IMG/VR virus record: IMGVR_UViG_3300037575_000020 | Location: 1 to 55,316 of that record | From: a virus | Lineage: Duplodnaviria; Caudoviricetes | Reading direction: 5' to 3' (one strand) | DNA: 55,316 bases | Shown here: in pieces, positions 38,774 to 55,274 of the stretch | Layout of the letters: every line of letters starts with the position of its first letter | Position numbering within the stretch: position 1 is the stretch's first letter | Notes under the pieces: generated by a model | Seen by the model: the letters and a program-made list of their open reading frames with translations, nothing else | The model's database searches: none | What the model was told of the DNA's origin: nothing | Translations under genes and position numbers: made by a program

Positions 38774-41700
38774 ATGAGCTTAAACGATAAATTATTCAGC
38801 ATTGCTAGTTCAGCCGTTGAGAAGCAGCGCAAAACTCGTGATAGCCGCAGTGCGGTATCAAAAGGTTTTGATGTGGCCACCAATAAAAGCTACTCGAATG
38901 AAGATAAGAAAGTGGCAGCCAAAGCCTTGCGCGAGTGGGAAAATAAAACTTGGAAGCCAAAGGTTGAGGCCAAACTCAAGCAAGAGCTAAAAGCGCGTGC
39001 GCCTCACTTAAAGCCGGGCAGCCCAAAATACAATCAGACTTATGAAAGCCTATTCAATAAAAACTATAAAGACCTGCAGGCCGCCAAAGCGGAAGCACAA
39101 CAAAAAATTGGTACGCTACGCAAGCCTAAGCAAACGCAGCGCGAGCTTGATAATGAGTACCGCACCAATGAGTCTATCCGTAATGACACCGTAGGTGTTC
39201 AAGCCGCCTCACATGCAGCGCGTGACACAGTGTCAGCCGTAGGCGGTGCGCTTGCTACTGGCACATCACGCTTACTACGTGCGCCATTACAGCTTGCCGC
39301 TGACGTGGGCGACAATGACGACGGTGGTATCTTTGACCGTGGCGCAAAAGCGCTAGAGAGCTATGAAGATGATATATCTAATAACGTCTATCAGGCGTAT
39401 GGCGATATTCAGCAGAACGGCAACTTCTCACAAAAGCTTGCTGTATCAGCCGTTGAGCAGGTGCCAGCGCTTGCTGCTAGTTTTGGGGCAGCAGGTGTAG
39501 CTGCTAAAGGTGTTCAGGCCGTAGGCGCAGGCGCCAAAGCAACGGCAGCCGCTTCTTATGGTGTGGCTGGCGCGTCTATGTACCCACAAGCTTATCTTGA
39601 TGGTAGCGATAGCACCAAAGATGAGCTGGAAAATGCAACGTCAGAGCAGCTTGCCAGCGCTGAACGCTCGCAAGATATCTACAAAGGCATGTTTGACAAA
39701 AACGTCAAAGCTGGCATGAGTGAGGATGAGGCGCACGCGAAAGCACGCGATCAGACCATCAGTGAAATTGCTGAAGAGTCAGGCGAGAATGTGGGCCTTG
39801 CGACACTAGCACTTAGCATGATGGCGCCAGGCGTCGGCTCATTCACTGCCAACCGAGCTGCTGGTGGTGCGGTTAGTCAATGGGGCCAAAAGGTATTCAA
39901 TAAGCTTGCCGTCAAAGCAGATGCAAGCAAGGTAGCAGGAGCCGCCATTCCTACAGCTGTTGGCGCTGGCATTGTGGGGTTAAACGTCGCTGAGGAAGGC
40001 TTGCAAGAAGGTTATACCGACTTAGTGGCGCAGCAAGCGGCTGTCGATGTGGGTGTCAAAGAAGAAATAGACAGAGCGCAAAGCACCGAAGCTGTCCTGA
40101 TGGGCGGTATTTTAGGCGGCTTAATGGGCGGTGGCACCTATATCGGTACGCGTAATTCAAAACTACAACAAGCGCAAGACGGACTCAAAGTCGCGCAGCA
40201 AAACTATGCTGATATTGCATCAACCATACCGCAGCTACAAGAGCAAATTACAGCTGTGTCGCCACGCTCAGCAGAAGGTCAGGCGCTAATCACACAGTTA
40301 GAGCAGACCAAATCAGCGCTTAATGCTATGGCAAGTGATGCTGAGAGTCGCGGTATTCCTCGCACGTCGCTGGCACGTCGCGCACCACGTATTGACCCAA
40401 GTAACAGTATCGATCAAGAATTTGACGGTCAAGTCGATGGTGCAACTGAGATTGACGAACAAGGTTTTGATGCTGCATTAAATCCGCAAGGCACGCCAGC
40501 CGCGCCAGTACAACCAGTCGTTGACAGTCAACCTAGCGAGCAAGAGCTTGACGCGCAAGATGCGCAGATCGCTGAGCTTATCGCAGAGCAGCAAGCGCTC
40601 GATGAAGCCATTGACGATGACAGCGCTGGTAAGCCGGTCGAAGAATCTTTAGCAGCCGCGCAAGCATGGTACGACGACAAGCGCGGTGAGAACAAACAAG
40701 GGTTATCAGGCGTCGTGAGCCGAGCAGCTGCTAAGGTTGAAGATGCCGCGTTCGCAGAGCAACAACAAGTGATTGCTGGTACAGGCGCTACTATTAACGA
40801 CTATATAGCGAGTAGGCGCGCTGAGCAGGCGCAGATTGATGCAGAGATCGCACAAGTCGCAGCAGACGCTAAGACGGAGCGCGAACGCCAAGCCGCTGAG
40901 CAATTAAAGCAGAAGCGTGATATAGAGCGTGCAGAAGCAGAAGCCGAGATTGCCAAGCGTGCAGAGCTTGCACAGCCTTATGAGAATGAAGCGTTTGATA
41001 CTACCGTTGTGGGTGCTGATGGTACACCGTTTAACCTAGCAAGGTTCTGGGATAGCAATATGCCAGCCGCTATCAAAGCCAAGGCAATCGCTGATGCGTT
41101 CGGTGGTCAGGTAGAGCAGAATGTCGCAAAGGCAGATTGGGCAAGTTTGCCTGAAGGTGTGCAAAAGCAGTTGCACCAGTGGATGACCGGGCAGCTTGAA
41201 GCGGTACGTCAAAGACGTGAAGCGCAGATTCAGCCGGACCAAGCAGTGCAGGAAGAGCAAAACAAAGCTAGTATCAGTCGTCAGCTTAATGACTCACAGG
41301 TCGCTAGTGGTCTTACTATGCCTGTGCGTGCAGAACAAGCGCCAGCGGCACCAGTAGAGACAGATGCAGCCACACAGTTGACTGATGAAAACCCTACTAT
41401 CAATATTCCGGCACCAGTTTCCGATACATCGTCCGTAGAATTAAATAACAAGCCGTCAGGCAGGCATGCACCTACCAAGACATATGGTCGTGAACCTTGG
41501 GCGTTTATTGGAGAGAATGAGTACGGAATGCCTATCTACCAAAGCCAAAGCGGTGAGCGAATTACCCAAAAGGCAAGTGGTGACTTCTTAGGCGCTGAAA
41601 CAGTTAATCCAGAAACTTACAAGGTCGATCCTAAAGAGCTTGCGAAAGAACACTATACAGTATCCGAAGTTGCTGCAGCTAGAGAGAGATACCAAAAGGT

Positions 41701-44700
41701 TCAGGATCAAAATAAAAAACAAGTAATTAGTGCGCCTCAGCAAGTAGATGCGCTACCTGATGGCGTCTATAAAAGTCAGCCAGCCGCACGCGCTGCTATC
41801 AAGCAGCAAAAACTTAATCCAAAAGAAGCATCTATTGTCAAAGTTGATAATGGGTGGGAGTTAGTAGAATCTACACCAGCCACTAGAGCACAAGCAAGAG
41901 TGGACAGCAAAAACGCAGACAGAAAAGAGCAGGAAGCCGACCAACGATCAGATGACACCGCAATACCTAACAATGATGTCGCTATTGGTAAAGACGGTAA
42001 TGCTAAGTGGTTCGGTAAGCAGGATAAGGCGCAAGCGTTTATTGATAAGAAGGGTATTAGCAATACGCATGAAGTCGTGCAGGCTGGCAAGCGTTTTGAG
42101 ATACAACCGAAGGCGCAAACATCAGGAGCTAGCAAGCAAACCTCGCAACCTACCGATGTATCAATTGAAAACAGAGGTCCTGATACTCAGGAGCTAACCG
42201 CAACAGGCAAGGCTAAGATTACAGGTCAAGCAGGATGGGACGGCAACATTGCCAAGTCTCGTGATTTGGTTCGACAGCTACATGAAGCAGGGTATTTATC
42301 CAAGATTGAAACAGAAAATGCTTTTACAGGAGGTGTTTATACTCTATCGGAAGCTGCTAAGCTGGGATTGAAACGCCAAGATAACCCACCGCCAGTTAAA
42401 AATATTGGTGACAACATTACCGACAAAGGTGGTCGAGAACATAGACTGGTTAGTGTCAATTACAATAAGTCAGGCGGTATAGACAGTGTTAGCACTCAAT
42501 ACTACTCAGAAGCAGACGGCAAATATAAATCCATTCAAGAAAGATCGCTTGGTGATTTTTGGAGAATGTTTGGTGAGCTGGATTTATCTTCTACTGAATC
42601 GGAGCAAGTTAAGGCAACTACCGCCAAGAAGCCTAAACCACTGACTGACGAGCAGTTTGCAGAATTAACCAGCAGTCGCACCACGCCTTCTACACCGACT
42701 GGCGAGCAGTCCGCGCCAGCCAAACGAGCAGCAGCGAAGAAAGGAGTTAAGGAAAACAAGGTATTTGGCGTTGCTCAACAATATTATGAGCCAAAGCAAG
42801 AAAGGCTAACTGTAGAGCCAGGCGATGTTAAGTGGAGAGATAGCTATTCCGATACAAACGCTGTAATAAGACAGCTTGTTAAGAAAGGGTACTTGGAAAA
42901 ATCAGAGTTCGATAATTCCAACAAGGAACATTCGTCGTTAATTGAGTTAGCTATTAAGGGTATCAAGGCGGAGCGCGAAGCTGCTAATATCGCACCTCAA
43001 GCCACTACCGAAAAAACACAAAATGATGTAGCGCCAGAACCCAAAGGACGCTTTGCTGATAACAAGCTATTCACTGAAGATAAGGTAGCAGCGGCACGCG
43101 CTCGCCTAAAATCCAAGCTAACACAGGTCAACTCAGGCCTAGACCCTGAAATACTAATGGACGGCATGACGCTGGCAGGGGCGTACATTGAAAGCGGCGT
43201 TCGTAAGTTTGGTGACTATGCCAAAATGATGATGAGTGATGTAGGGCCAGAGATTAAACCCTACCTACTAACACTGTGGAATGGTGTGCGTGATTACCCT
43301 GGATTAGATAACGAGGGCATGACCAACGAAGTTGATAGTCGTGCTGAGTTTAATAAGTTAATGGCTGAGACTGAGCAGGCAAGCGAACCTACCACGCCAG
43401 CCAAAACCAAACACCCTGAATCCATCGACGTAGGCAACGACAAGCGCCTATTTGTTGGTGAAAACACGGAGGGCGAACCTATCTATGAAGATAAAAACGG
43501 TATAAGATCAAAGCCAGAAGGTAACTTTATGGCAAGCGAGCCAGTAGGTATCAATCTAGGTAGCGAAGGTCCTGCTTATGATGTGAGCCGACGCGCTGAT
43601 AAATTCAAGACAGTGGAAGAGATAAGCGAGAATAACAATGATGACACCGAAGCAGGCACGCAGGATCAAGCAGGAGCGCCGGAAGTACGAGCGCGAGGAA
43701 GTGACCCACAATCAGGAGCTACACCAGCAGATAGTGGAGACGTGGCAACAGAACAGCCCACAAATGACAGCGCGACTGACGAAATTGCAAGTGCTGGACG
43801 ACCTAGCGTTCGTGGTGCAGGAGCGAATGTGGCAGACGAAGGATCAGTACCAAGCCAGCGGAATGCCGAGATCGGACGCGAAGGAACAGGCGACACGCGA
43901 ACATCTAATGCTAGAGCCGGAAAGCGAGCAACAGACAGCGGAACCACTTCACCAGCCGCTACCAAAGCAAGCGCAACCGACCTATTAATTGAAAACCCAC
44001 TAGAGATCGTCGGTGGCACACCAGTACAGCGATTCAATAAAAACCGTGAAGCGCTAGAGCTGCTACAGCGTCTTGAAACAGAAAGTCGCCAAGCCAGCCC
44101 AGCAGAACAAAAGATATTAGCCGGATATATTGGCTGGGGTTCTTTTGGTCAAGAGCTATTTCAAGGTTCATGGGATCATCCTAAATATAAAGACGAGGGC
44201 GTCTGGAAAGATCGCGGTGAATGGTTGCGTGAGACGATGGGCGAGTCTGCCTGGAAGTCAGCACAGCGCTCAATCACCAATGCCCACTATACTGATCCAC
44301 CTACTGTTATGGCGATGTGGGCTATGGTTGAGCGCATAGGCTTTACTGGTGGGCGCGTACTAGAGCCGTCAATGGGTACTGGTAACTTCTTTAGCATGAT
44401 GCCAGCGCAGGTACAATCGCGCAGTCAACTCACTGGTATTGAGCTTGATGAAATGACAGGCTCGATTGCTAAGCAGTTATTCCCACAATCAAACATTCAA
44501 GTCATGGGGTATCAGGAGTCTAAAACGCCTGATAACTTCTATGACGTGGTGATCGGTAACTATCCTTTTGAAAACACACCAGTAGCAGACCGTCGCTACA
44601 ACAAGCTAAACCCAATGCTACACGATTACTTCTTTTTAAAGTCGATGGACCAAGTAAGACCAGGCGGTCTTGTGATTAGTATCACATCGTCCGGCACAAT

Positions 44701-47700
44701 GGATAAGCAGAACGAAGGTATCAGACGCGAACTTGCCAAACAAGCTGACCTAGTGGCTGCTATTCGTTTGCCGTCTGGCGCGTTTAAAGATTATGCTGGT
44801 ACAGCCGTAGTAACCGATATTGTCATCTTGCGCAAGCGTGCCGAGAAAGCCGCTATCGTGCCAGAAGATGCAACATGGGTGGCAGTTAATGATTATGTTA
44901 CCCCATCAGGTGAAACCATCAAGCTGAGCCAATACTATATCGATAACCCTCAAAACATCATTGGTACGATTGATTTTGGCACAGGCACCACTAAATTTGG
45001 TGCAGGCATGATTGTTCGTCGCCCAGACAATATGGAAGAGCGCTTACAACAGGCAATCGACTTGGTGCCTGAGAACGTCATGCAGGCCGACACCACAACC
45101 GACCATCTAACCTACTATGCTAACACAACAGGCGAGCGTCACGGTTCATTGTTCAGCAATGATGCAGGCGAGCTTATGCTTGCTCGCGGTGATCAGATGG
45201 TTAAGGCCCAAGACGTTACCAGTTATGAGGTGAAATCCAAAGCAACGACGCTTGATCGTGAGACTCAGATCAAGGACGCTATTGATTTACGTCAAAAATT
45301 TACCGCACTTGTTGATAAAGAGCGTGCCGGGCAAGAAGCTGAGACAGAACGCAAGGCGTTAAAATCAGCCTACAATGCTTTTGTTAAAAATCACGGCAGT
45401 CTGCGCGACTCTTACGCACTTAAATACATGGATCGCGTCAATGACCCATTCTATTATGACTTAGCAGCACTTGAGCAAGACGACGGCAAGCCAGCTATCA
45501 TTATGAGCAGAAGTACAACACGTGGTAAGGCTGCTATCAAAAACCCAAGTGTGCGTGATGCTTATGTGCTGGCACGTAACAACTCAGTAAACCCCACGTT
45601 AAAAGAGATTGCAGCGCTAACGGATAAGTCTGAGCAAGAAATCCGTAAAGAGCTTAAAGATAGCGGTGCGGTGTTTGAAGGCCCGAACGGTGACATCGTG
45701 CCGTCTGATATTTACTTATCAGGCAACGTGCGCCAAAAACTAAGAGAAGCAGAAGCGGCCCTTAAAGATGGAAATAAGGCGATGAAAGATAACGTCGCTT
45801 CATTAAAAGCCGTTGTGCCTGAAGATGTGCCTTACTTTAATATCGAAACCAAACTAGGTGCAACCTGGATACCGCCAGAAGCCTATCAAGATTATATTGC
45901 TCACATGCTAGGCAAGAGCGACGCGGACAATATAAACGTATCATTTCTATCAGGTCGCTGGAAGGTCAAGCTGGGCAAGGGTATGAACCATGCCGCAGAA
46001 GCGCGCACAAACTACGGCACCCATCATTATCACTTTAGTGCATTGGTTCAGGCCGCCTTTAGTAACCAGGTCGTTCGTATCACAAGAAAGATTGACGGTG
46101 AAGAGGTTTATGACCATGAAGCCACAAGCGAAGCCAATGAGCGTATCGCCAAAATTCGCGGTGACTTTAGCGAGTGGCTGTGGAGTGACCCTGAGCGCCG
46201 AACCGACTTAGAAAAAGAATACAACGAAGCGCGTAATGCTTGGGCCACACCTAAGTATGACGGCAGCTTCTTAACCTTTGAGGGTATGGCGCTATCACTA
46301 GGCAAGGGTGAGTTTAACTTGCGTGAGCACCAAGCCAATGCGATATGGCGTGCTATCGTCAACCGTCGTAGTATTAATGCTCATGAAGTAGGTACTGGTA
46401 AGACGTTTACGATGGGCGGTATCGCTATCGAGTCGCGTCGATATGGTATCGCTAAAAAGCCGATTATCTTTGCTCATAACGCCAACAGCGCAGCGGTAGC
46501 GGAAGAAATCCGCATGATGTACCCATCAGCACGTGTGCTATATGTGAACAACCTTGAGCCTAAATTCCGTGATATTCGTTTGCGTCAAATTGCCAACGAT
46601 GATTGGGATGTTATCGTGATGCCGCACTCTCTTCTTGATCGCATGACATTAACCGAAGATACCTTAATGGCTATGGCGGCTGATGATATTGCCGCACTTG
46701 AGCAAGAGTTTAGAGAAGCTGCTGAAGAAGATGGCGAGAATGTCAGTAAAATCAATCTCGATGATGACGAGTCTATTGGCAAGATTCGCTCTACCACTGC
46801 AAAAGAGTTGGCCAAGTCTCGCAAACGTATCATTGAAACCATCAAAAAGCAGGCCCAGCAATCAAGCAAGGCGAACGCAGTTACTTTTGAGGACTTAGGC
46901 ATCGACATGATCTTAGTCGATGAGGTGCATGAGTTTAAGAAGCCGCCTATTGTGACGCGCATGAAGATGAAAGGCTTGAATACAAGCACGTCGCAACGCT
47001 CTATTCAGATGCAATTTTTAACGCGATATGTTCGTCAGATGAACAATGGCGGTAACGTGCACACCTTTACTGGTACACCTATCACCAATACCATTACTGA
47101 GATTTACCATCAGATGCGCTATGTGATGGAAACGGAAATGAATGAAGCCGCTGTGTCAGATTGGGATGGTTGGTTTGGCTCGTTTGCTACTGAGACACAG
47201 GACGTTGAGTTGTCGAGTGCTGGTGATTATGAAATGGTCACACGCTTAGCAGGCTTTGTGAACGTGCCTGAGTTGCGTCAGATGATCGGTCAGTACATGG
47301 ACACCGTGTTTGCAGAAGATATGCCTGAAATGCAGCCACGTAAAACAGAGTCCGGCAAGACAATGGGTGATGATCTTACCGATCTTGAACGCGCTCATCT
47401 ATTAAATGGCAGAACCGAAGGCGCAAAAGACAGACCGTACAAAAAGGTTATTAACGAGTCTGCAGACATGACCGCAGAACAGAAGCGGATATTTGCACAG
47501 GTGCAAGAGTACGCGGCAGAATGGCGCGACGCTGACGGTAAGACTCGCAGAAAATGGATGAAAGATGGAGATCATCGCTCACCATTAATCTATGGCCGCT
47601 TGGCTGATACCGCTAGTTTTGACGCCCGATTGCTAGACCCTGATTTGGTTGGTAAAGAAGGGCAAGTGCCTGATGACGAGAACAGCAAAACCAGTCGCGT

Positions 47701-50700
47701 GATCAAAAATGTTAGAGATATTTATGACAGTCACGAATTGGCTAGTCAGGTTATCTTTATGGATCAAGGGTACGGAACCAAAGCAAAACGCAGTGGTGGC
47801 CGTAACGCACAAGGCGAGAAAAACCCAGACATCACCGTTGATATATTCTCACCAGTGCTGGATTTGGTGGAACGATTGGTTCAGTCTGGCATACCGCGAG
47901 AGCAGATAGCAGTGGTCAGCGGTAAAACCAAGAAGGAGGAGCGCAGTAGAATTGCAGCCGCCATGAACACCGGTGAGATTCGCGTTGTGATTGGTAGCAC
48001 GCAAACGCTAGGCGTCGGTGTGAACATGCAGCGCAACTTGCGCGCCATGCACCACATGGACGCCCCTTATATGCCTGGTGAGTTAGAGCAGCGTAACGGA
48101 CGTGGCCAGCGACAGGGGAACCAATGGAATACGGTTTTAGAATACCGCTATATGACTGACCGCTTGGACGGTAAGCGCTGGCAGATACTCGCGGTCAAGC
48201 AGCGCTTTATCACCGCCTTTATGAAAGCGAAAGGTAACGCTCGTACAATCGAGGGTGATGCAGTAGAGGAAGAAAGCGATATTTTAGAGTCGTTCTCAGA
48301 AGCCGCTGGTGATCCGCGTATTTTGCAGCGCGTCAAACTACAGAAAAAGCAGGACCAACTAAACAGTAAAGAGCGCTTATACACTCGCGGCATTGCTGAC
48401 ATGCGTAGAGAAATCCGCACGCAAACAGAGCTTGCAGTTAATAACCAGGCAGCACTCGATGCAATCAATCCTCAAGCGGTTGAAGATGCACTTGCCAGCC
48501 AGCGCGACAACTTTAATGTAACTATTGATGGTAAAACCTACGATAAGCGCGCTGATGCTACAGCAGCACTAGATGAATACATTAAGAAAAATGTCAGACT
48601 TGGTGACCCATTAACCAAGGTTGGGAGTTATGCTGGCACGCCTATGTCAATAGTGTTTAAGCATGGCGCACCTAATCCTGAGTTGGTGCTAACAATGGGC
48701 GGCCAGACATTTAGCGGCAAGGGCATTACTGGCTTAGAGTCAGTCATGCGCAATCTACCTAAGCAAATAGAGAAGAAGCAGGCAAGTATTGAAAAATCAA
48801 AAGCCACGGTTGAGCATTTAAAGAAAGCCGTTACACAGCCATTTACCCAGAAGGCAGAGCTTGAGCGTGTTGGTAAGCAGATCAAAGCGCTTGAAGCTGA
48901 TTTAGATTTAAACCCAATTCCAGCGCCAGTATGGTTGCGTCAAGGTGCGCCAATGGATTCTGAGGTTTTCTACGGCAAACAGCCTTTTGTGGTAACTGGT
49001 CATCAATACAGCAAGGACGGTTACTTTGTTGTCGCAGAGGACGATAAAGGCTCAACCACCATTCCTTATCTTGAAGCAAAAGACAGTGTAGGTATGCCGT
49101 TGTACGACGAGCAAGAGTTTATTGCACCTGAGATTGTCACAAAAAAGGATGCTGATAGCCTTACCGAAGAAGATCGCGTACCTGGTACTGAAGAGCCTAA
49201 GTTTTCTAAAACCAATCCAGCCAAAGGATTAACTGGCACTACCAGCCAGCAAGTTATTGGTTTGCTGCAAAATCGTTTTGGTAAAGAGGCAGTCGCCCAG
49301 CTTATCAAGGCTGGCAAGCTACGAGTGCGCACGCTCAATGATTTTGTTGGTAGCAATGGTCGATTACTCATCCCAAACGACGCAGAAGGCTTTTACCATC
49401 AAGGCAAAGTTGTGTTGATTGCTGATAATCTTAAATCTGATACAGCTGTAGCGACACTACTTCATGAGCTTGGCGGTCATGCTGGTATTCAATCGATGCT
49501 TTCAACCCAAACTTACATGGGGCTTATGGAAAACTTCTATGATTTAGTGAAGTCTGGTAACAAGTATGCAGTAAGAGCCAAGCAGCGTGCAGAGGCAAGC
49601 ACCTACAGCGCTAGTGAAGCACGCGATGAATATATCCCATATCTAATTACTGAATATTCGCAAGCGACTGAGCGTGGCGGTCCGCTTGCTGTTATCAAGC
49701 GTTTTGTGAATCGCGTCATGGCTGGCGTGCGCGCATGGGTTCGAGACAATACAGGCGTTCAGTTAAAAATAACGCCTAATGATATAACGCAACTTGCTGA
49801 GCGTATGGTTAAGCGTCTGGCAGAGCAGAGCATGGATAGTGTGACTATTGCTGGCATGGATAATACCGCAGCAATGCCGCAGTACAGTCAGGAATCCACC
49901 AATCAAACAACCACGGCAGCGTTTAAAAAATGGTTTGGTGATAGCAAGGTGGTGGACAGTAATGGCAAGCCGTTAGTTGTTTATCACGGTACAATCAAAT
50001 CATTCAACGAGTTTAATACGACTGATTTTGGTGCGCTGTTGGGTAGAGGGGGTTACTTCACCTCGAATGAGTTAGAAGCGAACAGTTATTCAGGTGGCGG
50101 TACTCGTATCGTGCCAGCTTATCTATCAATAGAAAACCCTTACTATGTTGATTCAGGCTTGGCATCGGTTCCAAGTCGTCAGCAGATGCTAAAAGATGGT
50201 CATGACGGGGTTATCTATAGAGATACGGATGGTAGCGTAAAGTGGGCAGTCGCTCATAAGCCAACGCAGATTAAGTCGGCCACCAACAATATTGGTACGT
50301 TTGATCCATCAAATCCTGATATTCGCTTTAGCCGTCGCTATTCAAACTTAGGTACAGACACAAGCCCAACCACAGCGAAAGAAAAAGCGATTGATGCTGC
50401 TAAGCAGTCAGCAGCTACCGCACTGTCATCTAAGTTTAACTTGAGCTTGTTGCTACGTCGTCATCTAGCCACACCGCTACACGTCGGTATGCTAAACCCA
50501 AGCTTTAAAACCTTCTTTGAAAACGTGCAGTCGCGTATTGCTTACGAGAACAACGAAGCCGGGCGCATACAAGAGTATCTACCTGAGATTTGGGATACCA
50601 AGCTGATGGTAGGCAAGCGCAAAAAAGCAATCGATAAAGTCAGTCGTGCTTTGTTTGATGGCACAATGGCAGATCAGGTGTGGACCGATCCCGAGCTTGA

Positions 50701-53086
50701 GGCAAAATTCAATCTTGATGACAAGCAAAAAGATATGTACCGACGCGCTCGCGCTGCTATTGATTCGTCTGTACTTCACATGACAGTTGATACGCTATCA
50801 TCATTAGCTAAGGGCACCAAGCTGGTTAACATTCATACCATCAATAGATTGAAGCTGGCAGGACTAACCCCTATCGGTCATAACCTGATGATTCAGCAGC
50901 ACATGACGGACGAGCTCAAGAAGTTGGCTCAGTCTGGCAGTATCACGCCAGCCGCAGAGAAGCGTTTGCAAAATCAGTTAGACGGCGTGTTTGACGTGAT
51001 GGATAGTATCGCGGTCAAGTATGACGATCTTGTTGAAAAAGGCTATGCGCCGTTGATGCGATTTGGACACTATGCCGTTGAGGTTCGTGATAAATCCAAC
51101 AATGAGCTGGACTTGTTTGAGCTCTACGAAACCAAAGGCCAACAGCGCAAAGCTATTAAAGAGCTTAAAGAAAAATATGATGAGAATGATTTTGAAGTTG
51201 GCACTGGTACGCTCAATCCTGATGCGTTTAAGCAATTCACAGGCAAAGGTTTATCCCCTGAGACAGTGCAGTTGTTTGCCGCTGAGCTTGGCCTTGATGA
51301 TGACGGTGCCTATCAAGCGTACCTCAAAGTAGCAATCAGCAATCAAAGCGCGCTTAAACGTCTGATTCACCGTAAAAAGGTGCCGGGGTATAGCGAGGAC
51401 TTGCCGCGAGTCTTATCGTCATTCGTCATGAGTAACGCACGCTACAGTGGTCGTGCTCTGTATAATGGCGAGATCGAGAACGCCATACAAAAGATTGAGG
51501 ACGGTAACTTACAAGGTGAAGCGCAGAACGTCTTTGCTAACATGGAAAACCCACAAGAGGAGTTTGCAGGCGTGCGCGGTTTACTCTTCCATTACTATAT
51601 GGGATTTTCTACCGCATTTATGGTGCTTAACTTTACCCAGCCATTTACTCAGACCATACCTAAGCTGACCGCTTATGTTGGCGCAGCGCGTGCGCATAGA
51701 GACATGACACAGGCGCTAGGCATTATCACCAAGTACTCAGGCAAAGCGACATTTGAGTTCGGTAAAAAGGTCACAGGTAATGCTACACCTAGCTGGAAAG
51801 GTTTTGAGGACCACTTGCCAGCATGGGTGAAAAAAGAGGACTACTTACGCATGACTCGTGAGGGTCATCTTGATCCGCAAAATATCTGGATGATTCGAGG
51901 GCTTGAGCGCGGTAAGGCTGGCGTGATTAGCGGTCTATGGGGTAACTTATCGCGTGCCGCTGGTTGGGCCGCTGAGGTGTCAGAGACAATCAACCGTCGT
52001 GGCACTATGATTGCTGCCTTTAAAGTTGCGCAGACGATGGGTGATGCTAAGTTGAAAGCGGAAGGCTTTAACAGTCGCTATGACTTTGCAGTATCGATCA
52101 TTCAACAGACGCAAGGGGTTTATAATAAGGGCAATCGTTCAGGGCTGGCGCGTGGTACTGGTAAGCTTGGACAGTTTGGGCCATTGGTCATGGTGTTTAA
52201 GCAGTTCAGTATTAATTATGCTGAGCAGATGATTCGTCACGGGCGCGATAAAGAGGTTAAATCAATCGCAGTCGCTATGACGTGGCAGTTCTTATTGGCT
52301 GGCGCGTTAGGCTTGCCATTCACTGATGACTTGCGTGATATTGTAGAGGGCTTGCTATACCGCCTATTTGGTCGTGCAACCAACTTGACCGCATTCCTTC
52401 AGGACGAGCTTGGCAAAGATAATGCCGATGCCCTTATGTACGGCTTACTCAGTGAGAAAACACGCTTTGATATGTATGGTCGCTCAAACATGGGTAACTT
52501 TATCCCTGGTACTGACTTTGCTAGACCAAAAGAGGGCGATTGGGCGGAAGTCATTGGAGCATCAAGCGGATTCTTTGAAAACTTCTTTACCGCAGGCGAT
52601 ATGATCACCAAAGGCCAGTATAAAGATGCAGCAGTGATAGCAGCACCGCGTTATGTTCGAGATGCGGCAGCAGGTATTGAGATTTGGAACAATGGCGCTT
52701 ACCGCAACCAAAAAGGCGATAAGGTGATGGATATGGACCGCACTGATGCTGTCATCAAAGGTGCGTTACAGTTCAACCCAGCGTCCAATGCTAAACAAGG
52801 CCGTGAACGTAGCGAGAAGTACCACATGAAAAACATGGTGCTTGACAAGCAAAATCAGTTTGCTCTACAGTTGACAGAGGCGCTATATCAAGAGGACTAC
52901 GATAGAGTTGACGAGCTTTATAATGACATGGACGCCTGGAACGAACGCAATCCCGAACACTTTAATGTAGATATTGATAAGATTGAAGATTCGGCAGAGC
53001 GTCGTTTGGATAAGAAGGACTTTACCAGCGAGGATCGTCAGAAACTACCGGAGCAGTTAGATGACTATTTCACCGAAAGAGAATAA
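38774..53086 (+). CDS. darB: Giant DarB-like polyvalent virion protein (N6-methyltransferase, SNF2 helicase, metallopeptidase-like, ART-like and PLxRFG regions)
   Basis: EPSMGTG (44363), NYPF (44558), HEVGTGKT (46382), DEVH (46919), QRNGRGQRQG, HELGGH (49463), FKKWFG..YHGT..QIKS (from 49922), PLMRFG (51050). Confidence 0.9.
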   Translation: MSLNDKLFSIASSAVEKQRKTRDSRSAVSKGFDVATNKSYSNEDKKVAAKALREWENKTWKPKVEAKLKQELKARAPHLKPGSPKYNQTYESLFNKNYKDLQAAKAEAQQKIGTLRKPKQTQRELDNEYRTNESIRNDTVGVQAASHAARDTVSAVGGALATGTSRLLRAPLQLAADVGDNDDGGIFDRGAKALESYEDDISNNVYQAYGDIQQNGNFSQKLAVSAVEQVPALAASFGAAGVAAKGVQAVGAGAKATAAASYGVAGASMYPQAYLDGSDSTKDELENATSEQLASAERSQDIYKGMFDKNVKAGMSEDEAHAKARDQTISEIAEESGENVGLATLALSMMAPGVGSFTANRAAGGAVSQWGQKVFNKLAVKADASKVAGAAIPTAVGAGIVGLNVAEEGLQEGYTDLVAQQAAVDVGVKEEIDRAQSTEAVLMGGILGGLMGGGTYIGTRNSKLQQAQDGLKVAQQNYADIASTIPQLQEQITAVSPRSAEGQALITQLEQTKSALNAMASDAESRGIPRTSLARRAPRIDPSNSIDQEFDGQVDGATEIDEQGFDAALNPQGTPAAPVQPVVDSQPSEQELDAQDAQIAELIAEQQALDEAIDDDSAGKPVEESLAAAQAWYDDKRGENKQGLSGVVSRAAAKVEDAAFAEQQQVIAGTGATINDYIASRRAEQAQIDAEIAQVAADAKTERERQAAEQLKQKRDIERAEAEAEIAKRAELAQPYENEAFDTTVVGADGTPFNLARFWDSNMPAAIKAKAIADAFGGQVEQNVAKADWASLPEGVQKQLHQWMTGQLEAVRQRREAQIQPDQAVQEEQNKASISRQLNDSQVASGLTMPVRAEQAPAAPVETDAATQLTDENPTINIPAPVSDTSSVELNNKPSGRHAPTKTYGREPWAFIGENEYGMPIYQSQSGERITQKASGDFLGAETVNPETYKVDPKELAKEHYTVSEVAAARERYQKVQDQNKKQVISAPQQVDALPDGVYKSQPAARAAIKQQKLNPKEASIVKVDNGWELVESTPATRAQARVDSKNADRKEQEADQRSDDTAIPNNDVAIGKDGNAKWFGKQDKAQAFIDKKGISNTHEVVQAGKRFEIQPKAQTSGASKQTSQPTDVSIENRGPDTQELTATGKAKITGQAGWDGNIAKSRDLVRQLHEAGYLSKIETENAFTGGVYTLSEAAKLGLKRQDNPPPVKNIGDNITDKGGREHRLVSVNYNKSGGIDSVSTQYYSEADGKYKSIQERSLGDFWRMFGELDLSSTESEQVKATTAKKPKPLTDEQFAELTSSRTTPSTPTGEQSAPAKRAAAKKGVKENKVFGVAQQYYEPKQERLTVEPGDVKWRDSYSDTNAVIRQLVKKGYLEKSEFDNSNKEHSSLIELAIKGIKAEREAANIAPQATTEKTQNDVAPEPKGRFADNKLFTEDKVAAARARLKSKLTQVNSGLDPEILMDGMTLAGAYIESGVRKFGDYAKMMMSDVGPEIKPYLLTLWNGVRDYPGLDNEGMTNEVDSRAEFNKLMAETEQASEPTTPAKTKHPESIDVGNDKRLFVGENTEGEPIYEDKNGIRSKPEGNFMASEPVGINLGSEGPAYDVSRRADKFKTVEEISENNNDDTEAGTQDQAGAPEVRARGSDPQSGATPADSGDVATEQPTNDSATDEIASAGRPSVRGAGANVADEGSVPSQRNAEIGREGTGDTRTSNARAGKRATDSGTTSPAATKASATDLLIENPLEIVGGTPVQRFNKNREALELLQRLETESRQASPAEQKILAGYIGWGSFGQELFQGSWDHPKYKDEGVWKDRGEWLRETMGESAWKSAQRSITNAHYTDPPTVMAMWAMVERIGFTGGRVLEPSMGTGNFFSMMPAQVQSRSQLTGIELDEMTGSIAKQLFPQSNIQVMGYQESKTPDNFYDVVIGNYPFENTPVADRRYNKLNPMLHDYFFLKSMDQVRPGGLVISITSSGTMDKQNEGIRRELAKQADLVAAIRLPSGAFKDYAGTAVVTDIVILRKRAEKAAIVPEDATWVAVNDYVTPSGETIKLSQYYIDNPQNIIGTIDFGTGTTKFGAGMIVRRPDNMEERLQQAIDLVPENVMQADTTTDHLTYYANTTGERHGSLFSNDAGELMLARGDQMVKAQDVTSYEVKSKATTLDRETQIKDAIDLRQKFTALVDKERAGQEAETERKALKSAYNAFVKNHGSLRDSYALKYMDRVNDPFYYDLAALEQDDGKPAIIMSRSTTRGKAAIKNPSVRDAYVLARNNSVNPTLKEIAALTDKSEQEIRKELKDSGAVFEGPNGDIVPSDIYLSGNVRQKLREAEAALKDGNKAMKDNVASLKAVVPEDVPYFNIETKLGATWIPPEAYQDYIAHMLGKSDADNINVSFLSGRWKVKLGKGMNHAAEARTNYGTHHYHFSALVQAAFSNQVVRITRKIDGEEVYDHEATSEANERIAKIRGDFSEWLWSDPERRTDLEKEYNEARNAWATPKYDGSFLTFEGMALSLGKGEFNLREHQANAIWRAIVNRRSINAHEVGTGKTFTMGGIAIESRRYGIAKKPIIFAHNANSAAVAEEIRMMYPSARVLYVNNLEPKFRDIRLRQIANDDWDVIVMPHSLLDRMTLTEDTLMAMAADDIAALEQEFREAAEEDGENVSKINLDDDESIGKIRSTTAKELAKSRKRIIETIKKQAQQSSKANAVTFEDLGIDMILVDEVHEFKKPPIVTRMKMKGLNTSTSQRSIQMQFLTRYVRQMNNGGNVHTFTGTPITNTITEIYHQMRYVMETEMNEAAVSDWDGWFGSFATETQDVELSSAGDYEMVTRLAGFVNVPELRQMIGQYMDTVFAEDMPEMQPRKTESGKTMGDDLTDLERAHLLNGRTEGAKDRPYKKVINESADMTAEQKRIFAQVQEYAAEWRDADGKTRRKWMKDGDHRSPLIYGRLADTASFDARLLDPDLVGKEGQVPDDENSKTSRVIKNVRDIYDSHELASQVIFMDQGYGTKAKRSGGRNAQGEKNPDITVDIFSPVLDLVERLVQSGIPREQIAVVSGKTKKEERSRIAAAMNTGEIRVVIGSTQTLGVGVNMQRNLRAMHHMDAPYMPGELEQRNGRGQRQGNQWNTVLEYRYMTDRLDGKRWQILAVKQRFITAFMKAKGNARTIEGDAVEEESDILESFSEAAGDPRILQRVKLQKKQDQLNSKERLYTRGIADMRREIRTQTELAVNNQAALDAINPQAVEDALASQRDNFNVTIDGKTYDKRADATAALDEYIKKNVRLGDPLTKVGSYAGTPMSIVFKHGAPNPELVLTMGGQTFSGKGITGLESVMRNLPKQIEKKQASIEKSKATVEHLKKAVTQPFTQKAELERVGKQIKALEADLDLNPIPAPVWLRQGAPMDSEVFYGKQPFVVTGHQYSKDGYFVVAEDDKGSTTIPYLEAKDSVGMPLYDEQEFIAPEIVTKKDADSLTEEDRVPGTEEPKFSKTNPAKGLTGTTSQQVIGLLQNRFGKEAVAQLIKAGKLRVRTLNDFVGSNGRLLIPNDAEGFYHQGKVVLIADNLKSDTAVATLLHELGGHAGIQSMLSTQTYMGLMENFYDLVKSGNKYAVRAKQRAEASTYSASEARDEYIPYLITEYSQATERGGPLAVIKRFVNRVMAGVRAWVRDNTGVQLKITPNDITQLAERMVKRLAEQSMDSVTIAGMDNTAAMPQYSQESTNQTTTAAFKKWFGDSKVVDSNGKPLVVYHGTIKSFNEFNTTDFGALLGRGGYFTSNELEANSYSGGGTRIVPAYLSIENPYYVDSGLASVPSRQQMLKDGHDGVIYRDTDGSVKWAVAHKPTQIKSATNNIGTFDPSNPDIRFSRRYSNLGTDTSPTTAKEKAIDAAKQSAATALSSKFNLSLLLRRHLATPLHVGMLNPSFKTFFENVQSRIAYENNEAGRIQEYLPEIWDTKLMVGKRKKAIDKVSRALFDGTMADQVWTDPELEAKFNLDDKQKDMYRRARAAIDSSVLHMTVDTLSSLAKGTKLVNIHTINRLKLAGLTPIGHNLMIQQHMTDELKKLAQSGSITPAAEKRLQNQLDGVFDVMDSIAVKYDDLVEKGYAPLMRFGHYAVEVRDKSNNELDLFELYETKGQQRKAIKELKEKYDENDFEVGTGTLNPDAFKQFTGKGLSPETVQLFAAELGLDDDGAYQAYLKVAISNQSALKRLIHRKKVPGYSEDLPRVLSSFVMSNARYSGRALYNGEIENAIQKIEDGNLQGEAQNVFANMENPQEEFAGVRGLLFHYYMGFSTAFMVLNFTQPFTQTIPKLTAYVGAARAHRDMTQALGIITKYSGKATFEFGKKVTGNATPSWKGFEDHLPAWVKKEDYLRMTREGHLDPQNIWMIRGLERGKAGVISGLWGNLSRAAGWAAEVSETINRRGTMIAAFKVAQTMGDAKLKAEGFNSRYDFAVSIIQQTQGVYNKGNRSGLARGTGKLGQFGPLVMVFKQFSINYAEQMIRHGRDKEVKSIAVAMTWQFLLAGALGLPFTDDLRDIVEGLLYRLFGRATNLTAFLQDELGKDNADALMYGLLSEKTRFDMYGRSNMGNFIPGTDFARPKEGDWAEVIGASSGFFENFFTAGDMITKGQYKDAAVIAAPRYVRDAAAGIEIWNNGAYRNQKGDKVMDMDRTDAVIKGALQFNPASNAKQGRERSEKYHMKNMVLDKQNQFALQLTEALYQEDYDRVDELYNDMDAWNERNPEHFNVDIDKIEDSAERRLDKKDFTSEDRQKLPEQLDDYFTERE
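43638..43988 (+). CDS. Candidate overprinted gene in the +1 frame of darB (116 aa, helical)
   Basis: Protein-like amphipathic helical sequence spanning a disordered DarB linker and ending where the methyltransferase region begins. Confidence 0.6.
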   Translation: MMTPKQARRIKQERRKYEREEVTHNQELHQQIVETWQQNSPQMTARLTKLQVLDDLAFVVQERMWQTKDQYQASGMPRSDAKEQATREHLMLEPESEQQTAEPLHQPLPKQAQPTY

Positions 53087-53258
53087 CTTGCCAACCAGAC
53101 AAAGTAAGTTTATAGAATATCCAGTGCACTTCATTGTAGGCGCAGTGGATATCTATGTACGACTTGCTATGATTGCTGTGGTTATTGGTATCGCCTTGTC
53201 GATACTTTACACAGTTATCTATTTGCCGCTGGCATGGCTGTATGGTTTGATAGCGTAA
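53061..53258 (+). CDS. Small membrane protein
   Basis: 65 aa with a long hydrophobic C-terminal half, GGAG RBS, followed by a terminator. Confidence 0.45.
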   Translation: MTISPKENNLPTRQSKFIEYPVHFIVGAVDIYVRLAMIAVVIGIALSILYTVIYLPLAWLYGLIA

Positions 53259-53264
53259 ATTATC

Positions 53265-53298
53265 AAAACACCATTTTAGTAGCTAAAATGGTGTTTTT
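53265..53298. terminator. Terminator at the end of the late operon
   Basis: AAAACACCATTTTAG/CTAAAATGGTGTTTT perfect stem. Confidence 0.8.
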
Positions 53299-53344
53299 AG
53301 CAGGGTGGTTGTTGCTTTATGGCAGGGTAAACCTATTCAAATCA

Positions 53345-53374
53345 TTGTTATGCAGGTGTTTATACTGCTATAAT
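53345..53374 (+). promoter_or_regulatory. Extended -10 promoter of the ncRNA unit
   Basis: TTGTTA-18-TATAAT with TGc extension; the predicted +1 near 53381 coincides with the first base of a stem. Confidence 0.7.
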
Positions 53375-53380
53375 TGCTAT

Positions 53381-53738
53381 GCAAGGTTAAGCTGTTAAGC
53401 CGCAGGAACGAGAAACCAGCGGTGAGGTCGGATCGGGGTTACCCGGTTGCCTTGCAAACTTATTCAGTGCAGACTCTAACGTAAAAAGAGAAAGCCTAAT
53501 TGACTGGCAAAGCGCCCGATTAATACCGTAAGTTATAGCAGGTGGTGGAATAAGCAGGCACAAAGCGAAATAGACGTAGAAATCGGCTAGCCACTAGCGA
53601 ATTGTAGATGAAGCTTTAGTGCTGAAGCAGTAGAGGTGTCAAGCGCTTGGCATACAACTCTAGGAATACGGTTAAACTCCGTGCGTCTACCCCAACACCC
53701 AAAAGCCCACTCAGATTATTGAGTGGGCTTTTTTTATT
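53381..53738 (+). ncRNA. Candidate non-coding transcript of about 355 nt with tRNA-like modules
   Basis: Promoter, cloverleaf-like module 53381-53456, structured middle region, cloverleaf 53604-53694 ending in CCA, terminator; no plus-strand ORF of 60 aa or more. Confidence 0.65.
53604..53694 (+). ncRNA. tRNA-like RNA with expanded anticodon loop
   Basis: Acceptor GTAGATG/CGTCTAC, D-stem GCTT/AAGC, stem TAGAG/CTCTA with 22-nt loop, T-arm TACGG-TTAAACT-CCGTG, discriminator C, CCA. Confidence 0.65.
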
Positions 53739-53739
53739 T
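53701..53739. terminator. Bidirectional terminator between the ncRNA unit and integrase
   Basis: AAAAGCCCACTCA/TGAGTGGGCTTTT stem with T-run. Confidence 0.85.
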
Positions 53740-53817
53740 GCGTTCATAAACGCAAAACAGCCGCAGCCCTTATATATCAGCCGGGAGCCATAAGAATCGA
53801 TCAAGCGCAAGGGCGTT

Positions 53818-55023
53818 TTATCTAGCCTTTAATTCATCAAGATAGTCAGCATACGCTTGCATCATATCGCGTCTCTCTTCCAAAAATACCGTTCTATTAT
53901 AGGCGCGCCCATGCATATCGCGCACTCTATGGCCTAGTTGCATTTCTACCAGATTTTCAGGGTATTTTAGCTTTTCAACAATTAAAGTCCTGGCAGTCGC
54001 TCGAAAACCGTGTATAGTTTGCTTAGTCCCATCATAACCCAGGCGCTTTAGTGCCTGATTCATGGTGTTTTCACTCATTGGCTGAACGGTGGTGTGTATA
54101 GCAGGGAATAAATATTTACTACGTGCGTGATCTGATAACTCACGTATTAGCGCTATCGCCTGTCTTGGCAGTGGCACAATCAACTCTAAACCAGTCCTAC
54201 GCTGCGTTTTACGAGGCGTAAAGGACCAAGTACCCTCGTCTAAACAAAAGTCATTCCAGAGGGCATAACGTAGCTCGCCAGCCCTCACAAACAGCATAGG
54301 CATAAGCTTGATAGCCGTCCTTACTTCAAACGATCCTTGATAGTCATCAATCGCATTTAGTAATATACCGAGCTCTTTTGGGTCAAGCGTGGTTGGGTGG
54401 TGCTCGGTCACTGGTGTTTGCAATGCGCCTATTAAATCTTGCGTAATGTCACGCTCGCACCTTGCTGTTTGCACCGCATACCTAAATACCTGTCCAGCCA
54501 TTGTTCGCATTTTTATTGCCGTCTCCAGATACCCTTGCGCTTCAGCACTGCGGCACGCTTCTAGTATATCCATCGGCTTAATATCAGTCATAGGCGTATC
54601 ACCGATAAATTTATTCAATCGCTTGATTTGCCTGTAGTTATTGGCTTGCGTGGATTTTGCTATATGTGTTTTACGGCTCATGTACTCTTCGGCTATCGCT
54701 GCAAATGTGTTATTGGCTTGTAGTAATTGCTCGCGCTCATCCTCTAGTTTTTGTTGTTGTGGGTCAATACCTTCTGCCAATAGCGCACGAATACCTTTGC
54801 GCTGATCGCGTGCCTGAGCGAGCGTAATATCAGGATAAAGCCCCAACGTAATAGTCGCGTGCTTCTTAGTTATTGGTCTAACATAGTTCATTCGCCAGGA
54901 TTTAGCGCCTAGCTTTGTCACATATAAATACATGCCGCCACCGTCAGCAAGTTTATATGCCTTGTCTGCAGGCTTGGCTTGCTTAACCTGGCTATCGGTT
55001 AATGGTTTAATTATTTTAGCCAT
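53818..55023 (-). CDS. int: Tyrosine integrase, P4-like
   Basis: N-terminal arm-binding domain (DGGGMYL.V...G.KSW, LG.YP..TLA.AR); catalytic R (VRAGEL), HGFR, LGH and AYNR. Confidence 0.96.
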   Translation of the reverse strand: MAKIIKPLTDSQVKQAKPADKAYKLADGGGMYLYVTKLGAKSWRMNYVRPITKKHATITLGLYPDITLAQARDQRKGIRALLAEGIDPQQQKLEDEREQLLQANNTFAAIAEEYMSRKTHIAKSTQANNYRQIKRLNKFIGDTPMTDIKPMDILEACRSAEAQGYLETAIKMRTMAGQVFRYAVQTARCERDITQDLIGALQTPVTEHHPTTLDPKELGILLNAIDDYQGSFEVRTAIKLMPMLFVRAGELRYALWNDFCLDEGTWSFTPRKTQRRTGLELIVPLPRQAIALIRELSDHARSKYLFPAIHTTVQPMSENTMNQALKRLGYDGTKQTIHGFRATARTLIVEKLKYPENLVEMQLGHRVRDMHGRAYNRTVFLEERRDMMQAYADYLDELKAR

Positions 55024-55198: not shown

Positions 55199-55221
55199 TG
55201 GTGCGCCCACCAAGACTCGAA
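55199..55221. repeat. att core, right junction, inside the tRNA 3' end
   Basis: Exact 23-bp match to 129-151. Confidence 0.95.
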
Positions 55222-55274
55222 CTCGGATCGATCGCTTAGGAGGCAACTGCTCTATCCTGTTGAGCTATAGGCGC
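55199..55274 (-). tRNA. tRNA-Arg(CCT), integration target
   Basis: 76-nt cloverleaf GCGCCTA...CT-CCT-AA...GTTCGAGTC...TGGGCGC-A-CCA on the minus strand. Confidence 0.97.

Follow-up and report, generated by a model that had tools for sequence, protein, structure and literature searches.

A tRNA-like cloverleaf that is no tRNA forms the 3ʹ domain of a rare phage RNA cassette

The virus record IMGVR_UViG_3300037575_000020 (55,316 bases; hereafter 'the window', meaning this entire stretch of DNA) represents a temperate phage with genes for terminase, portal, major head and internal virion proteins, and near one end it carries a 91-nucleotide (nt) element at positions 53604-53694 that has the shape of a tRNA. 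This shape is real and goes beyond what chance produces. The element is tRNA-derived or tRNA-mimicking and yet is no tRNA. It does not stand alone as a gene but makes up the 3ʹ domain of a longer unit that runs from promoter to terminator, and the core of that unit is a mobile cassette that has moved between unrelated phage backbones, two of which were seen. The explanation that we favour, at a rough probability of 0.45, is that 53604-53694 is a tRNA-derived, non-decoding module at the 3ʹ end of a prophage non-coding RNA, where it would serve as a handle for processing or stability.

A cloverleaf outside the tRNA models

The acceptor stem of the element joins GUAGAUG (53604-53610) to CGUCUAC (53684-53690) in seven base pairs (bp), one of them U-G. 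The T arm (53667-53683) consists of a 5-bp stem, UACGG/CCGUG, and a 7-nt loop, UUAAACU, and the discriminator C53691 precedes a CCA that is encoded at 53692-53694, as it also is in the host tRNA genes found here. An initial annotation of this DNA, made from its letters alone, had described these parts and their standard tRNA spacing correctly, and it was equally right about A8, the altered D loop (UAGUGCUG), the T loop sequence and the 22-nt segment in the anticodon position. The universal tRNA bases U8, A14, G18G19 and C56 are lost, since position 8 is A, position 14 is U, the D loop lacks the GG pair and position 56 is A. The 22-nt segment replaces the usual 7-nt anticodon loop and is predicted to fold as a 7-bp hairpin with a 4-nt loop and a 4-nt bulge. 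The 8-bp pairing originally proposed for it (GUGUCAAG/CUUGGCAU) would leave a 2-nt loop and gives way to this fold. Two bases (A and G), where one had been assumed, separate the D and anticodon stems, and this is the sole deviation from standard tRNA spacing.

When the 91 nt are folded in isolation, the minimum-energy structure is exactly this four-arm cloverleaf. The shape was also sought with a generic cloverleaf descriptor, composed after the element had been seen, that specifies a 7-bp acceptor, a 3-4-bp D stem, a 5-bp anticodon stem with any loop, a 4-5-nt variable region, a 5-bp T stem, a T loop UUNRA, and then N + CCA. On both strands of the 55-kb window this descriptor matches the host tRNA-Arg and 53604-53694 only, and 0 of 300 dinucleotide shuffles of the whole window (both strands) give a match. 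A stricter descriptor, with room for a single base between the D and anticodon stems, failed to find the element, which has two there.

Standard tools do not call a tRNA at this site. ARAGORN with default settings reports only tRNA-Arg in the window, leaving 53604-53694 uncalled, and Rfam at the gathering score likewise returns only tRNA-Arg. With E values of up to 10 allowed, Rfam gives ten chance-level rows over 53200-53800, mostly on the terminator, with neither a tRNA nor a C4 RNA among them, and on 12 related loci it finds tRNAs and Proteo-phage-1 only, none of them on this RNA. Because the descriptor matches only tRNA-Arg and the element while the standard tools call none here, we take the shape to be real but the element not to be a tRNA. 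The initial expectation that it is unlikely to decode is borne out: the element lacks a 7-nt anticodon loop, it is accepted by no tRNA model, and all four DNA copies, like both RNA contigs described below, carry the insert in the anticodon arm.

Run in intron mode with the threshold lowered to 70% of normal, ARAGORN does report the element, as a tRNA-Asp(gtc) of 76 nt interrupted by a 15-nt insert at position 37/38, although this setting is noisy and yields one plainly false call in the same 501 bases. The exact position of the insert is uncertain by a base or two because of flanking AA repeats; together with its flanks it forms the 7-bp hairpin, with GCGC or UCGA as the 4-nt loop. An intron-containing tRNA-Asp, from which the 15 nt are removed to give a decoding tRNA, would agree with this call, with the canonical location of the insert and with the GUC anticodon that the initial annotation had pointed out. 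Beyond the letters of the loop, however, nothing supports the Asp assignment: the discriminator is C, pair 2-71 is U-A, and no insert-less relative is among the copies found. The insert is retained, with no joint, in both RNA contigs, though a rare form could escape detection in contigs. There is no bulge-helix-bulge, as the 7-bp helix carries one 4-nt bulge on its 3ʹ side only, a self-splicing (group I) intron would be far larger than 15 nt, and U8, G18, G19 and C56 are absent. To our knowledge, bacteria have no tRNA splicing endonuclease. We consider a spliced tRNA-Asp very improbable.

Two further candidates were tried and rejected. ARAGORN in its mode for transfer-messenger RNA (tmRNA) returned nothing, pair 3-70 is A-U and not the G3-U70 of tmRNA, and candidate tag frames are lost in the copy L004, as judged by eye. 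A tRNA relic from an attachment site was considered as well, but similarity to the tRNA-Arg of the window, or to the integrase-side tRNA-Met of L004, stays within the scores of shuffled sequences.

Table 1. Coordinates of the cloverleaf, its transcription unit and neighbouring features (window positions unless a locus is named)
Feature	Position	Strand	Basis or remark
tRNA-like cloverleaf, four arms, 91 nt	53604-53694	+	Sequence, fold, ARAGORN intron mode, descriptor
D arm	53613-53628	+	Within cloverleaf
Long anticodon arm	53631-53662	+	Within cloverleaf
15-nt insert at tRNA position 37/38	53641-53655	+	ARAGORN intron mode (relaxed threshold), fold, alignment
Sigma-70-type promoter (TTGTTA, 18-nt spacer, TG-extended TATAAT)	53345-53374	+	10/12 matches, TG before second hexamer
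Type-1 5ʹ domain, 75 nt, closed by GCAAGG/CCUUGC	53381-53455	+	Fold and alignment
Conserved stretch just before the RNA 5ʹ end	53460-53473	+	Homology to L003/L030 begins at about 53460
Upstream half of conserved core	53474-53603	+	5ʹ end of assembled RNA at 53474
Upstream strand UAGACGU, possible substitute for the local acceptor 5ʹ strand	53571-53577	+	Can pair with GCGUCUA at 53683-53689
Intrinsic terminator, 14-bp stem and T run	53701-53739	+	Faces convergent integrase gene
Tyrosine integrase gene	53818-55023	-	Adjoins tRNA-Arg(CCT); convergent with terminator of the RNA unit
tRNA-Arg(CCT) gene	55199-55274		Beside integrase gene
Proteo-phage-1 match	L019 6131-6213	-	Rfam
Proteo-phage-1 match	L020 6648-6730	-	Rfam
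Proteo-phage-1 match	L021 7859-7941	-	Rfam
Proteo-phage-1 match	L022 6724-6806	-	Rfam
Proteo-phage-1 match	L023 6832-6914	-	Rfam
Proteo-phage-1 match	L024 6801-6883	-	Rfam

The module within its transcription unit

The tRNA look-alike sits in a 730-base gap between a giant gene, with an open reading frame (ORF) of 65 codons overlapping its end, and the integrase gene. Within this gap, a promoter and an intrinsic terminator enclose about 350 nt (Table 1); the terminator is placed at 53701-53732, or up to 53739 as listed in the table. The promoter core (GCTATAAT/GCTATACT) is found at the same slot in related phages, and transcription would start near 53381. The first part of the transcript is a type-1 5ʹ domain that the window shares with L004, whereas the copies L003 and L030 share an unrelated type-2 5ʹ region instead. 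In the upstream half of the core that follows, hairpins are predicted at 53474-53490, 53497-53522, 53524-53547 and 53573-53587.

Parts of the stretch occur in 24 public sequencing runs from 18 studies, and six of these runs are RNA libraries. We examined the contigs of 4 of the 24 runs, including X8 (DNA) and X19 and X22 (RNA, from two studies). Both RNA contigs start exactly at 53474, that of X19 being 233 nt long with a depth of 2.3 and that of X22 331 nt long with a depth of 188, so that the type-1 5ʹ domain lies outside them. Adapter letters, which we take to be the end of an Illumina adapter, abut 53474 in X22, and this position is therefore a physical fragment end. The DNA contig of X8 continues upstream of 53474 into a type-2 flank. 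We read 53474 as a processed 5ʹ end because, by eye, no acceptable -10 element stands in front of it. At the other end, the X22 contig extends past 53695 by 85 nt and enters a terminator that resembles the one in X8. Neither RNA contig was reported to have a joint or indel, with the reservation that contigs can miss rare forms, and the 15-nt insert is therefore kept. An RNA with a defined 5ʹ end at 53474 and a retained insert thus exists. The initial annotation could not reveal that the 91 nt are no independent RNA gene but the last domain of the unit, and the assembled RNA begins at 53474 and not at 53604.

The X19 contig, from an oligo-dT library, carries 11 A-rich letters after 53695 that are unlike the downstream sequence of the other copies. 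This end could reflect a different flank or a non-templated tail near the CCA end.

A cassette shared by unrelated phages

Four distinct DNA copies of the RNA were found: that of the window; L004, which lies on the same contig as L016, L026 and L028; L003; and L030/L060, in genome G322. The near-identical copy in the contig of Psychrobacter sp. MES7-P7E (L026) points to Psychrobacter as the host type. The core, which begins at about 53460 and ends with the A that follows CCA (53695), is 93-97% identical among copies and free of gaps. It stops sharply at CCAA, the flanks cannot be aligned between backbones, and the terminators differ among copies.

The settings of these copies differ as well. 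In L060, a promoter (TTGACA-17-TAAAGT, 10/12 matches) directly follows a gene for a Q-like antiterminator (PHROG 79), a terminator comes after the RNA, and the terminase genes lie downstream. In L003, a Q-like gene is again directly upstream, and a promoter TTGACA-17-TAAGGT was recognized by eye only, as the promoter scan does not list it. In these two lambdoid prophages the unit is thus in the position of the late-leader (PRʹ-tRʹ) RNA. The window phage departs from this arrangement, in that its unit stands between the last virion gene and the integrase gene.

Relatives of the window phage show what the same slot can hold. In L015, where the C-terminus of the giant protein is 100% identical, the RNA is absent and a shared motif runs straight into the terminator, and in L017-L024 small ORFs or short RNA-like units stand behind a similar promoter. 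Because L015 has no RNA at the slot and other relatives have other cargo there, the unit is best viewed as a self-contained cassette.

The RNA family is rare. A search of a phage collection gave no match to the RNA, and two exact scans of viral contigs returned only L003 and L004. None of 10 integrase-related loci carries the RNA; among 10 loci related through the giant protein, the one that does is the L004 contig again; and the two Q-related loci comprise L003's own contig and one without the RNA. A scan of a genome collection for exact 20-mers gave one true match along with two unrelated Clostridia loci, and a metagenome scan of the same kind gave a single chance match, inside an ORF. BLAST against 401 genomes of G001's family, presumably the Moraxellaceae, yielded 2 true matches, and the hit ranked next spans 21 nt at E 0.0013. 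A covariance model of the RNA (R1) detected 1 of 151 genomes, which was G001 itself, and among 24 sources it picked out no more than the 4 known copies.

An exact match to the 20-mer across the variable region and T arm turns up in two unrelated Clostridia-type records (L025 and L027). The site in these records is, we assume, the core of cobalamin riboswitches, and the match is probably a shared T-loop-type motif and not homology.

Variation among the copies

Only four columns of the 91 nt vary among the copies, and all of these lie in predicted loops: 53620 and 53622 in the D loop, and 53643 and 53646 in the hairpin loop. The chance of such a distribution is about 0.013. The tRNA-like part is also the least variable portion of the core, with changes in 4/91 columns versus 18/130 upstream (Fisher p 0.023). 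In the upstream half, two-sided pair changes are seen at 53507/53515 (2 copies) and at 53575/53585 (1 copy), and a number of changes on a single side leave the pairing intact.

This pattern bears on a reading that we hold to be unlikely, namely that the element is a decaying tRNA gene, which took up the 15-nt insert and point changes, ceased to function, is now merely carried along within a leader or cargo transcript and owes its conservation to recent spread alone. The similarity of the copies implies that little time has elapsed since they parted, and several universal tRNA bases are indeed lost. Phage tRNA genes are common near late promoters, and one report places them downstream of tRʹ in an Stx2 phage (PMC7547250). 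Decay does not readily explain, however, why the core ends so sharply at CCAA between unalignable flanks, why variation in the tRNA-like part is lower than in the upstream core and confined to loops, or why two of its loop changes preserve self-complementarity. A broken stem or a missing insert is seen in 0 of the 4 DNA copies and 3 run-derived variants.

The two loop changes just mentioned distinguish a GCGC hairpin loop, as in the window and X8, from a UCGA loop, as in L003, L004, L030, X19 and X22. The changes at 53643 and 53646 always occur together, on different D-loop backgrounds. A pair that closes a 2-nt loop is unlikely to form within one molecule. The linked change can be accounted for in one way by pairing between two molecules, and in another by common descent of the double change. 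If the former applies, a decidedly unlikely but more elaborate model might be entertained, in which a phage-traded cassette of about 220 nt, as a new class of tRNA-derived RNA, engages the host's tRNA-end machinery or a defence system directed at tRNA through its tRNA top half and dimerizes through its self-complementary loop, to act as a dimeric decoy or regulator.

A structural switch is another way in which the element could be put to use. The initial annotation had noted that a strand upstream of the cloverleaf offers an alternative fold, and this pairing is possible, though it is not favoured. Under such a switch, 53571-53577 and 53604-53610 would compete for one 3ʹ strand, and the alternation between a processable and a closed form would regulate maturation. 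When three copies were folded to a consensus, the upstream strand was the one selected, the two forms are too close in evaluated energy for a decision between them, and L004, the only copy that varies within 53571-53577, has two changes there that keep pairing with the 3ʹ strand. These same changes also fit the local hairpin 53573-53587, however, with one pair there changed on both sides, transitions opposite G keep pairing by default, and the comparison covers only 4 sequences. We regard the switch as improbable.

Other roles for the RNA sequence were examined. The hairpin palindrome was rejected as a repeated operator, since its only exact match is the site itself. Antisense pairing with the rest of the window was sought, and the best complementarity covers 12-16 nt at E 0.83 or worse. 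Separately, 22 of the 24 nt at 53646-53669 show complementarity to the mRNA of a host ORF that is conserved, at least 739 residues long and presumably an aminopeptidase N. This ORF is present in 11 loci (L029 and L041-L050, at about 1501-1524) from 11 Psychrobacter-family genomes including G001, and the match has an E value of about 0.02 per genome. The complementarity is probably due to chance because the site lies deep in the coding region.

A handle for the machinery of tRNA ends

Of the classes of explanation, that of the initial suggestion, a mimic or a processing tag, is still the best, even though it can only be inferred. Within this class we prefer a processing and stability handle because the features that the element has kept are those read by bacterial RNase P, and those that it has lost are needed for decoding. 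According to one review, bacterial RNase P uses the 12-bp acceptor/T stack as a ruler and also reads the T stem-loop, a U at -1, the pair G+1/C+72 and the 3ʹ CCA (PMC11143913). In the element, the acceptor and T stems stack to 12 bp (7 + 5), the T loop has U at its position 1 and A at its position 5, U53603 stands at -1, and G53604 is paired with C53690 (G+1/C+72). The T loop more fully keeps U54, U55 and A58, above the closing pair G53-C61. The 12-bp stack, U54 and A58, the U at -1, the G1-C72 pair and the encoded CCA are thus all available to enzymes that act on tRNA ends.

We envisage the following series of events. The unit would be transcribed from its own constitutive-looking promoter and end at the intrinsic terminator, the promoter being, in the two lambdoid relatives, the late promoter directly behind the Q-like antiterminator gene. 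A cut of the primary transcript at 53473/53474 would free the variable 5ʹ part and leave a core of about 220 nt, plus a trailer, that ends in the cloverleaf. RNase P may then cut before G53604, 3ʹ trimming would stop at the CCA, and the compact tRNA-like fold would stabilize the RNA. The released pieces might have regulatory activity.

Several observations weigh against this handle. Both RNA contigs run unbroken through 53603/53604 and X22 passes the CCA, and therefore unprocessed forms exist, although contigs can show neither internal ends nor levels. RNA libraries can contain DNA, and the depth of X19 is only 2.3. As all 30 base pairs of the cloverleaf are invariant in the 4 near-identical copies of the alignment, which in itself argues neither way, there is no covariation to support the fold. 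The folding energy of the 91 nt is ordinary (z -1.40; 16/200 shuffles are at least as stable), and in a 224-nt context the energy model has no preference for the local cloverleaf in 2 of the 4 copies. The RCCA motif is imperfect, with an encoded CCA but a discriminator C in place of a purine, and the D-loop GG and C56, which build the elbow of a tRNA, are absent. Lastly, the rebuilt anticodon arm, with its long hairpin and self-complementary loop, is unexplained by a handle alone.

Some of the same features would suit a mimic whose benefit lies in sequestration and not in processing. In this fairly unlikely alternative, the top half formed by acceptor, T arm and CCA titrates a host factor that acts on the ends or the shape of tRNAs, candidates being a defence toxin that modifies or cleaves tRNA and a protein that processes or binds tRNA. 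Defence systems directed at tRNAs exist. Such a decoy would be consistent with an acceptor, T arm and CCA that do not vary and surpass the rest of the RNA in conservation, with the loss of the decoding loop, and with the abundance that the RNA can reach (depth 188 in X22). The cassette also moves between unrelated backbones without a fixed protein neighbour, and it must therefore act with host factors. The RNA has no linked defence or toxin gene, however, any target would have to be narrow given that 2 of 401 genomes carry the cassette, and the data do not separate binding from mere processing. Readings other than those discussed here share a small remainder of the probability.

Comparison with known RNAs

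Folds resembling tRNA are already known as handles or mimics in plant viruses, tmRNA, bacterial Y RNAs and a mammalian long non-coding RNA. The element belongs with such tRNA-like modules of non-coding RNAs, and it has neither an Rfam match nor a place in a named family. A literature search, mostly at the level of abstracts, found no prophage late-leader or cargo RNA described as having a tRNA-like tail.

Bacterial and phage tRNA genes (RF00005) share with the element the cloverleaf, U54, U55, A58, the G53-C61 pair, an encoded CCA and a terminator within a few bases. It differs from them in having no anticodon loop, in A8, U14, A56 and the missing G18G19, in the two bases at position 26, and in scoring below every tRNA threshold.

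In tmRNA and in YrlA, a bacterial Y RNA, a mimic of the acceptor and T arm is reportedly combined with a long helix that replaces the anticodon arm, and the element likewise joins a top-half mimic to a long helix in that place. Unlike tmRNA, it has no tmRNA-mode call, has A3-U70 and lacks a conserved tag frame. YrlA is reported to have its ends within the long helix and to be accompanied by an Rsr gene; the element has normal tRNA topology. The eukaryotic mascRNA, at the 3ʹ end of MALAT1, is said to be a tRNA-like fold that serves as an RNase P site and so sets the ends of both products, with CCA added after cleavage. Both RNAs are tRNA-like 3ʹ ends of a longer non-coding RNA, but mascRNA is unrelated in sequence, and cleavage of the phage RNA is putative.

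Phage RNAs matured by RNase P are already known. Two of them, the C4 and M3 RNAs, are not known to be four-arm cloverleaves. The C4 antisense RNA of P1 and P7 and the M3 RNA of phi80 are phage small RNAs matured by host RNase P (PMC11143913).

A close parallel in layout is StxS, a 258-nt PRʹ-tRʹ RNA of Stx phages that RNase E cuts to give a stable 74-nt small RNA (sRNA) (PMC7547250). The present unit resembles it as a short RNA that runs from a late promoter behind Q to an intrinsic terminator, StxS being constitutive and processed to a stable 3ʹ fragment (PMC7547250). Copies L003 and L060 show the same order of Q-like gene, promoter, RNA, terminator and late genes, and the 5ʹ end at 53474 looks processed. 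The likeness drawn here is one of layout. StxS is an Hfq-bound 74-nt base-pairing sRNA without a tRNA-like fold (PMC7547250). In the window, moreover, the unit stands after the last late gene and beside the integrase gene, not behind Q.

If the processing is real, phages have turned a tRNA gene into a device that defines the ends of an RNA and stabilizes it. If the decoy holds instead, the RNA would be an RNA-based member among phage counter-measures and would offer a handle on a host factor that reads the acceptor end. The system is workable in either case, as the complete copy L026 is carried by a cultured Psychrobacter isolate and environmental RNA data can contain the RNA in abundance.

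Genomic surroundings

The slot occupied by the unit is a site of variable content. It corresponds to 53259-53345 and 53740-53800 of the window and to about 5770-6700 in L015 and L017-L024, and it holds nothing, small ORFs, or RNA-like units of about 60-100 nt. These units have the shared promoter core GCTATAAT/GCTATACT, with repeated words of the TAGCT type before it and a similar terminator after them. Just beyond the cargo slot, Proteo-phage-1 (RF03044) is matched with 44-47 bits in 6 of 12 related loci (Table 1), and there is no match to it in the window. Tandem 10-nt repeats of the TGAACGCAAA type, in up to about 5 copies, occupy the interval between terminator and integrase gene in L015 and L020-L022, and 53740-53760 of the window keeps a remnant. 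These repeats could be arm sites for the integrase or an excisionase.

On the other side of the unit, 38774-53086 encodes a polyvalent protein of 4770 residues, with an ART-PolyVal domain at residues 3728-3843 and helicase domains, and this is the last gene of the virion region. The hydrophobic 65-codon ORF that overlaps its end (53061-53258) is kept in L015-L017. Farther away, within the block of virion genes and on the opposite strand, lies a gene of the O-antigen acetylase type (29415-31346, minus strand; PHROG 6705, E 7e-151), which looks like a cargo gene for lysogenic conversion.

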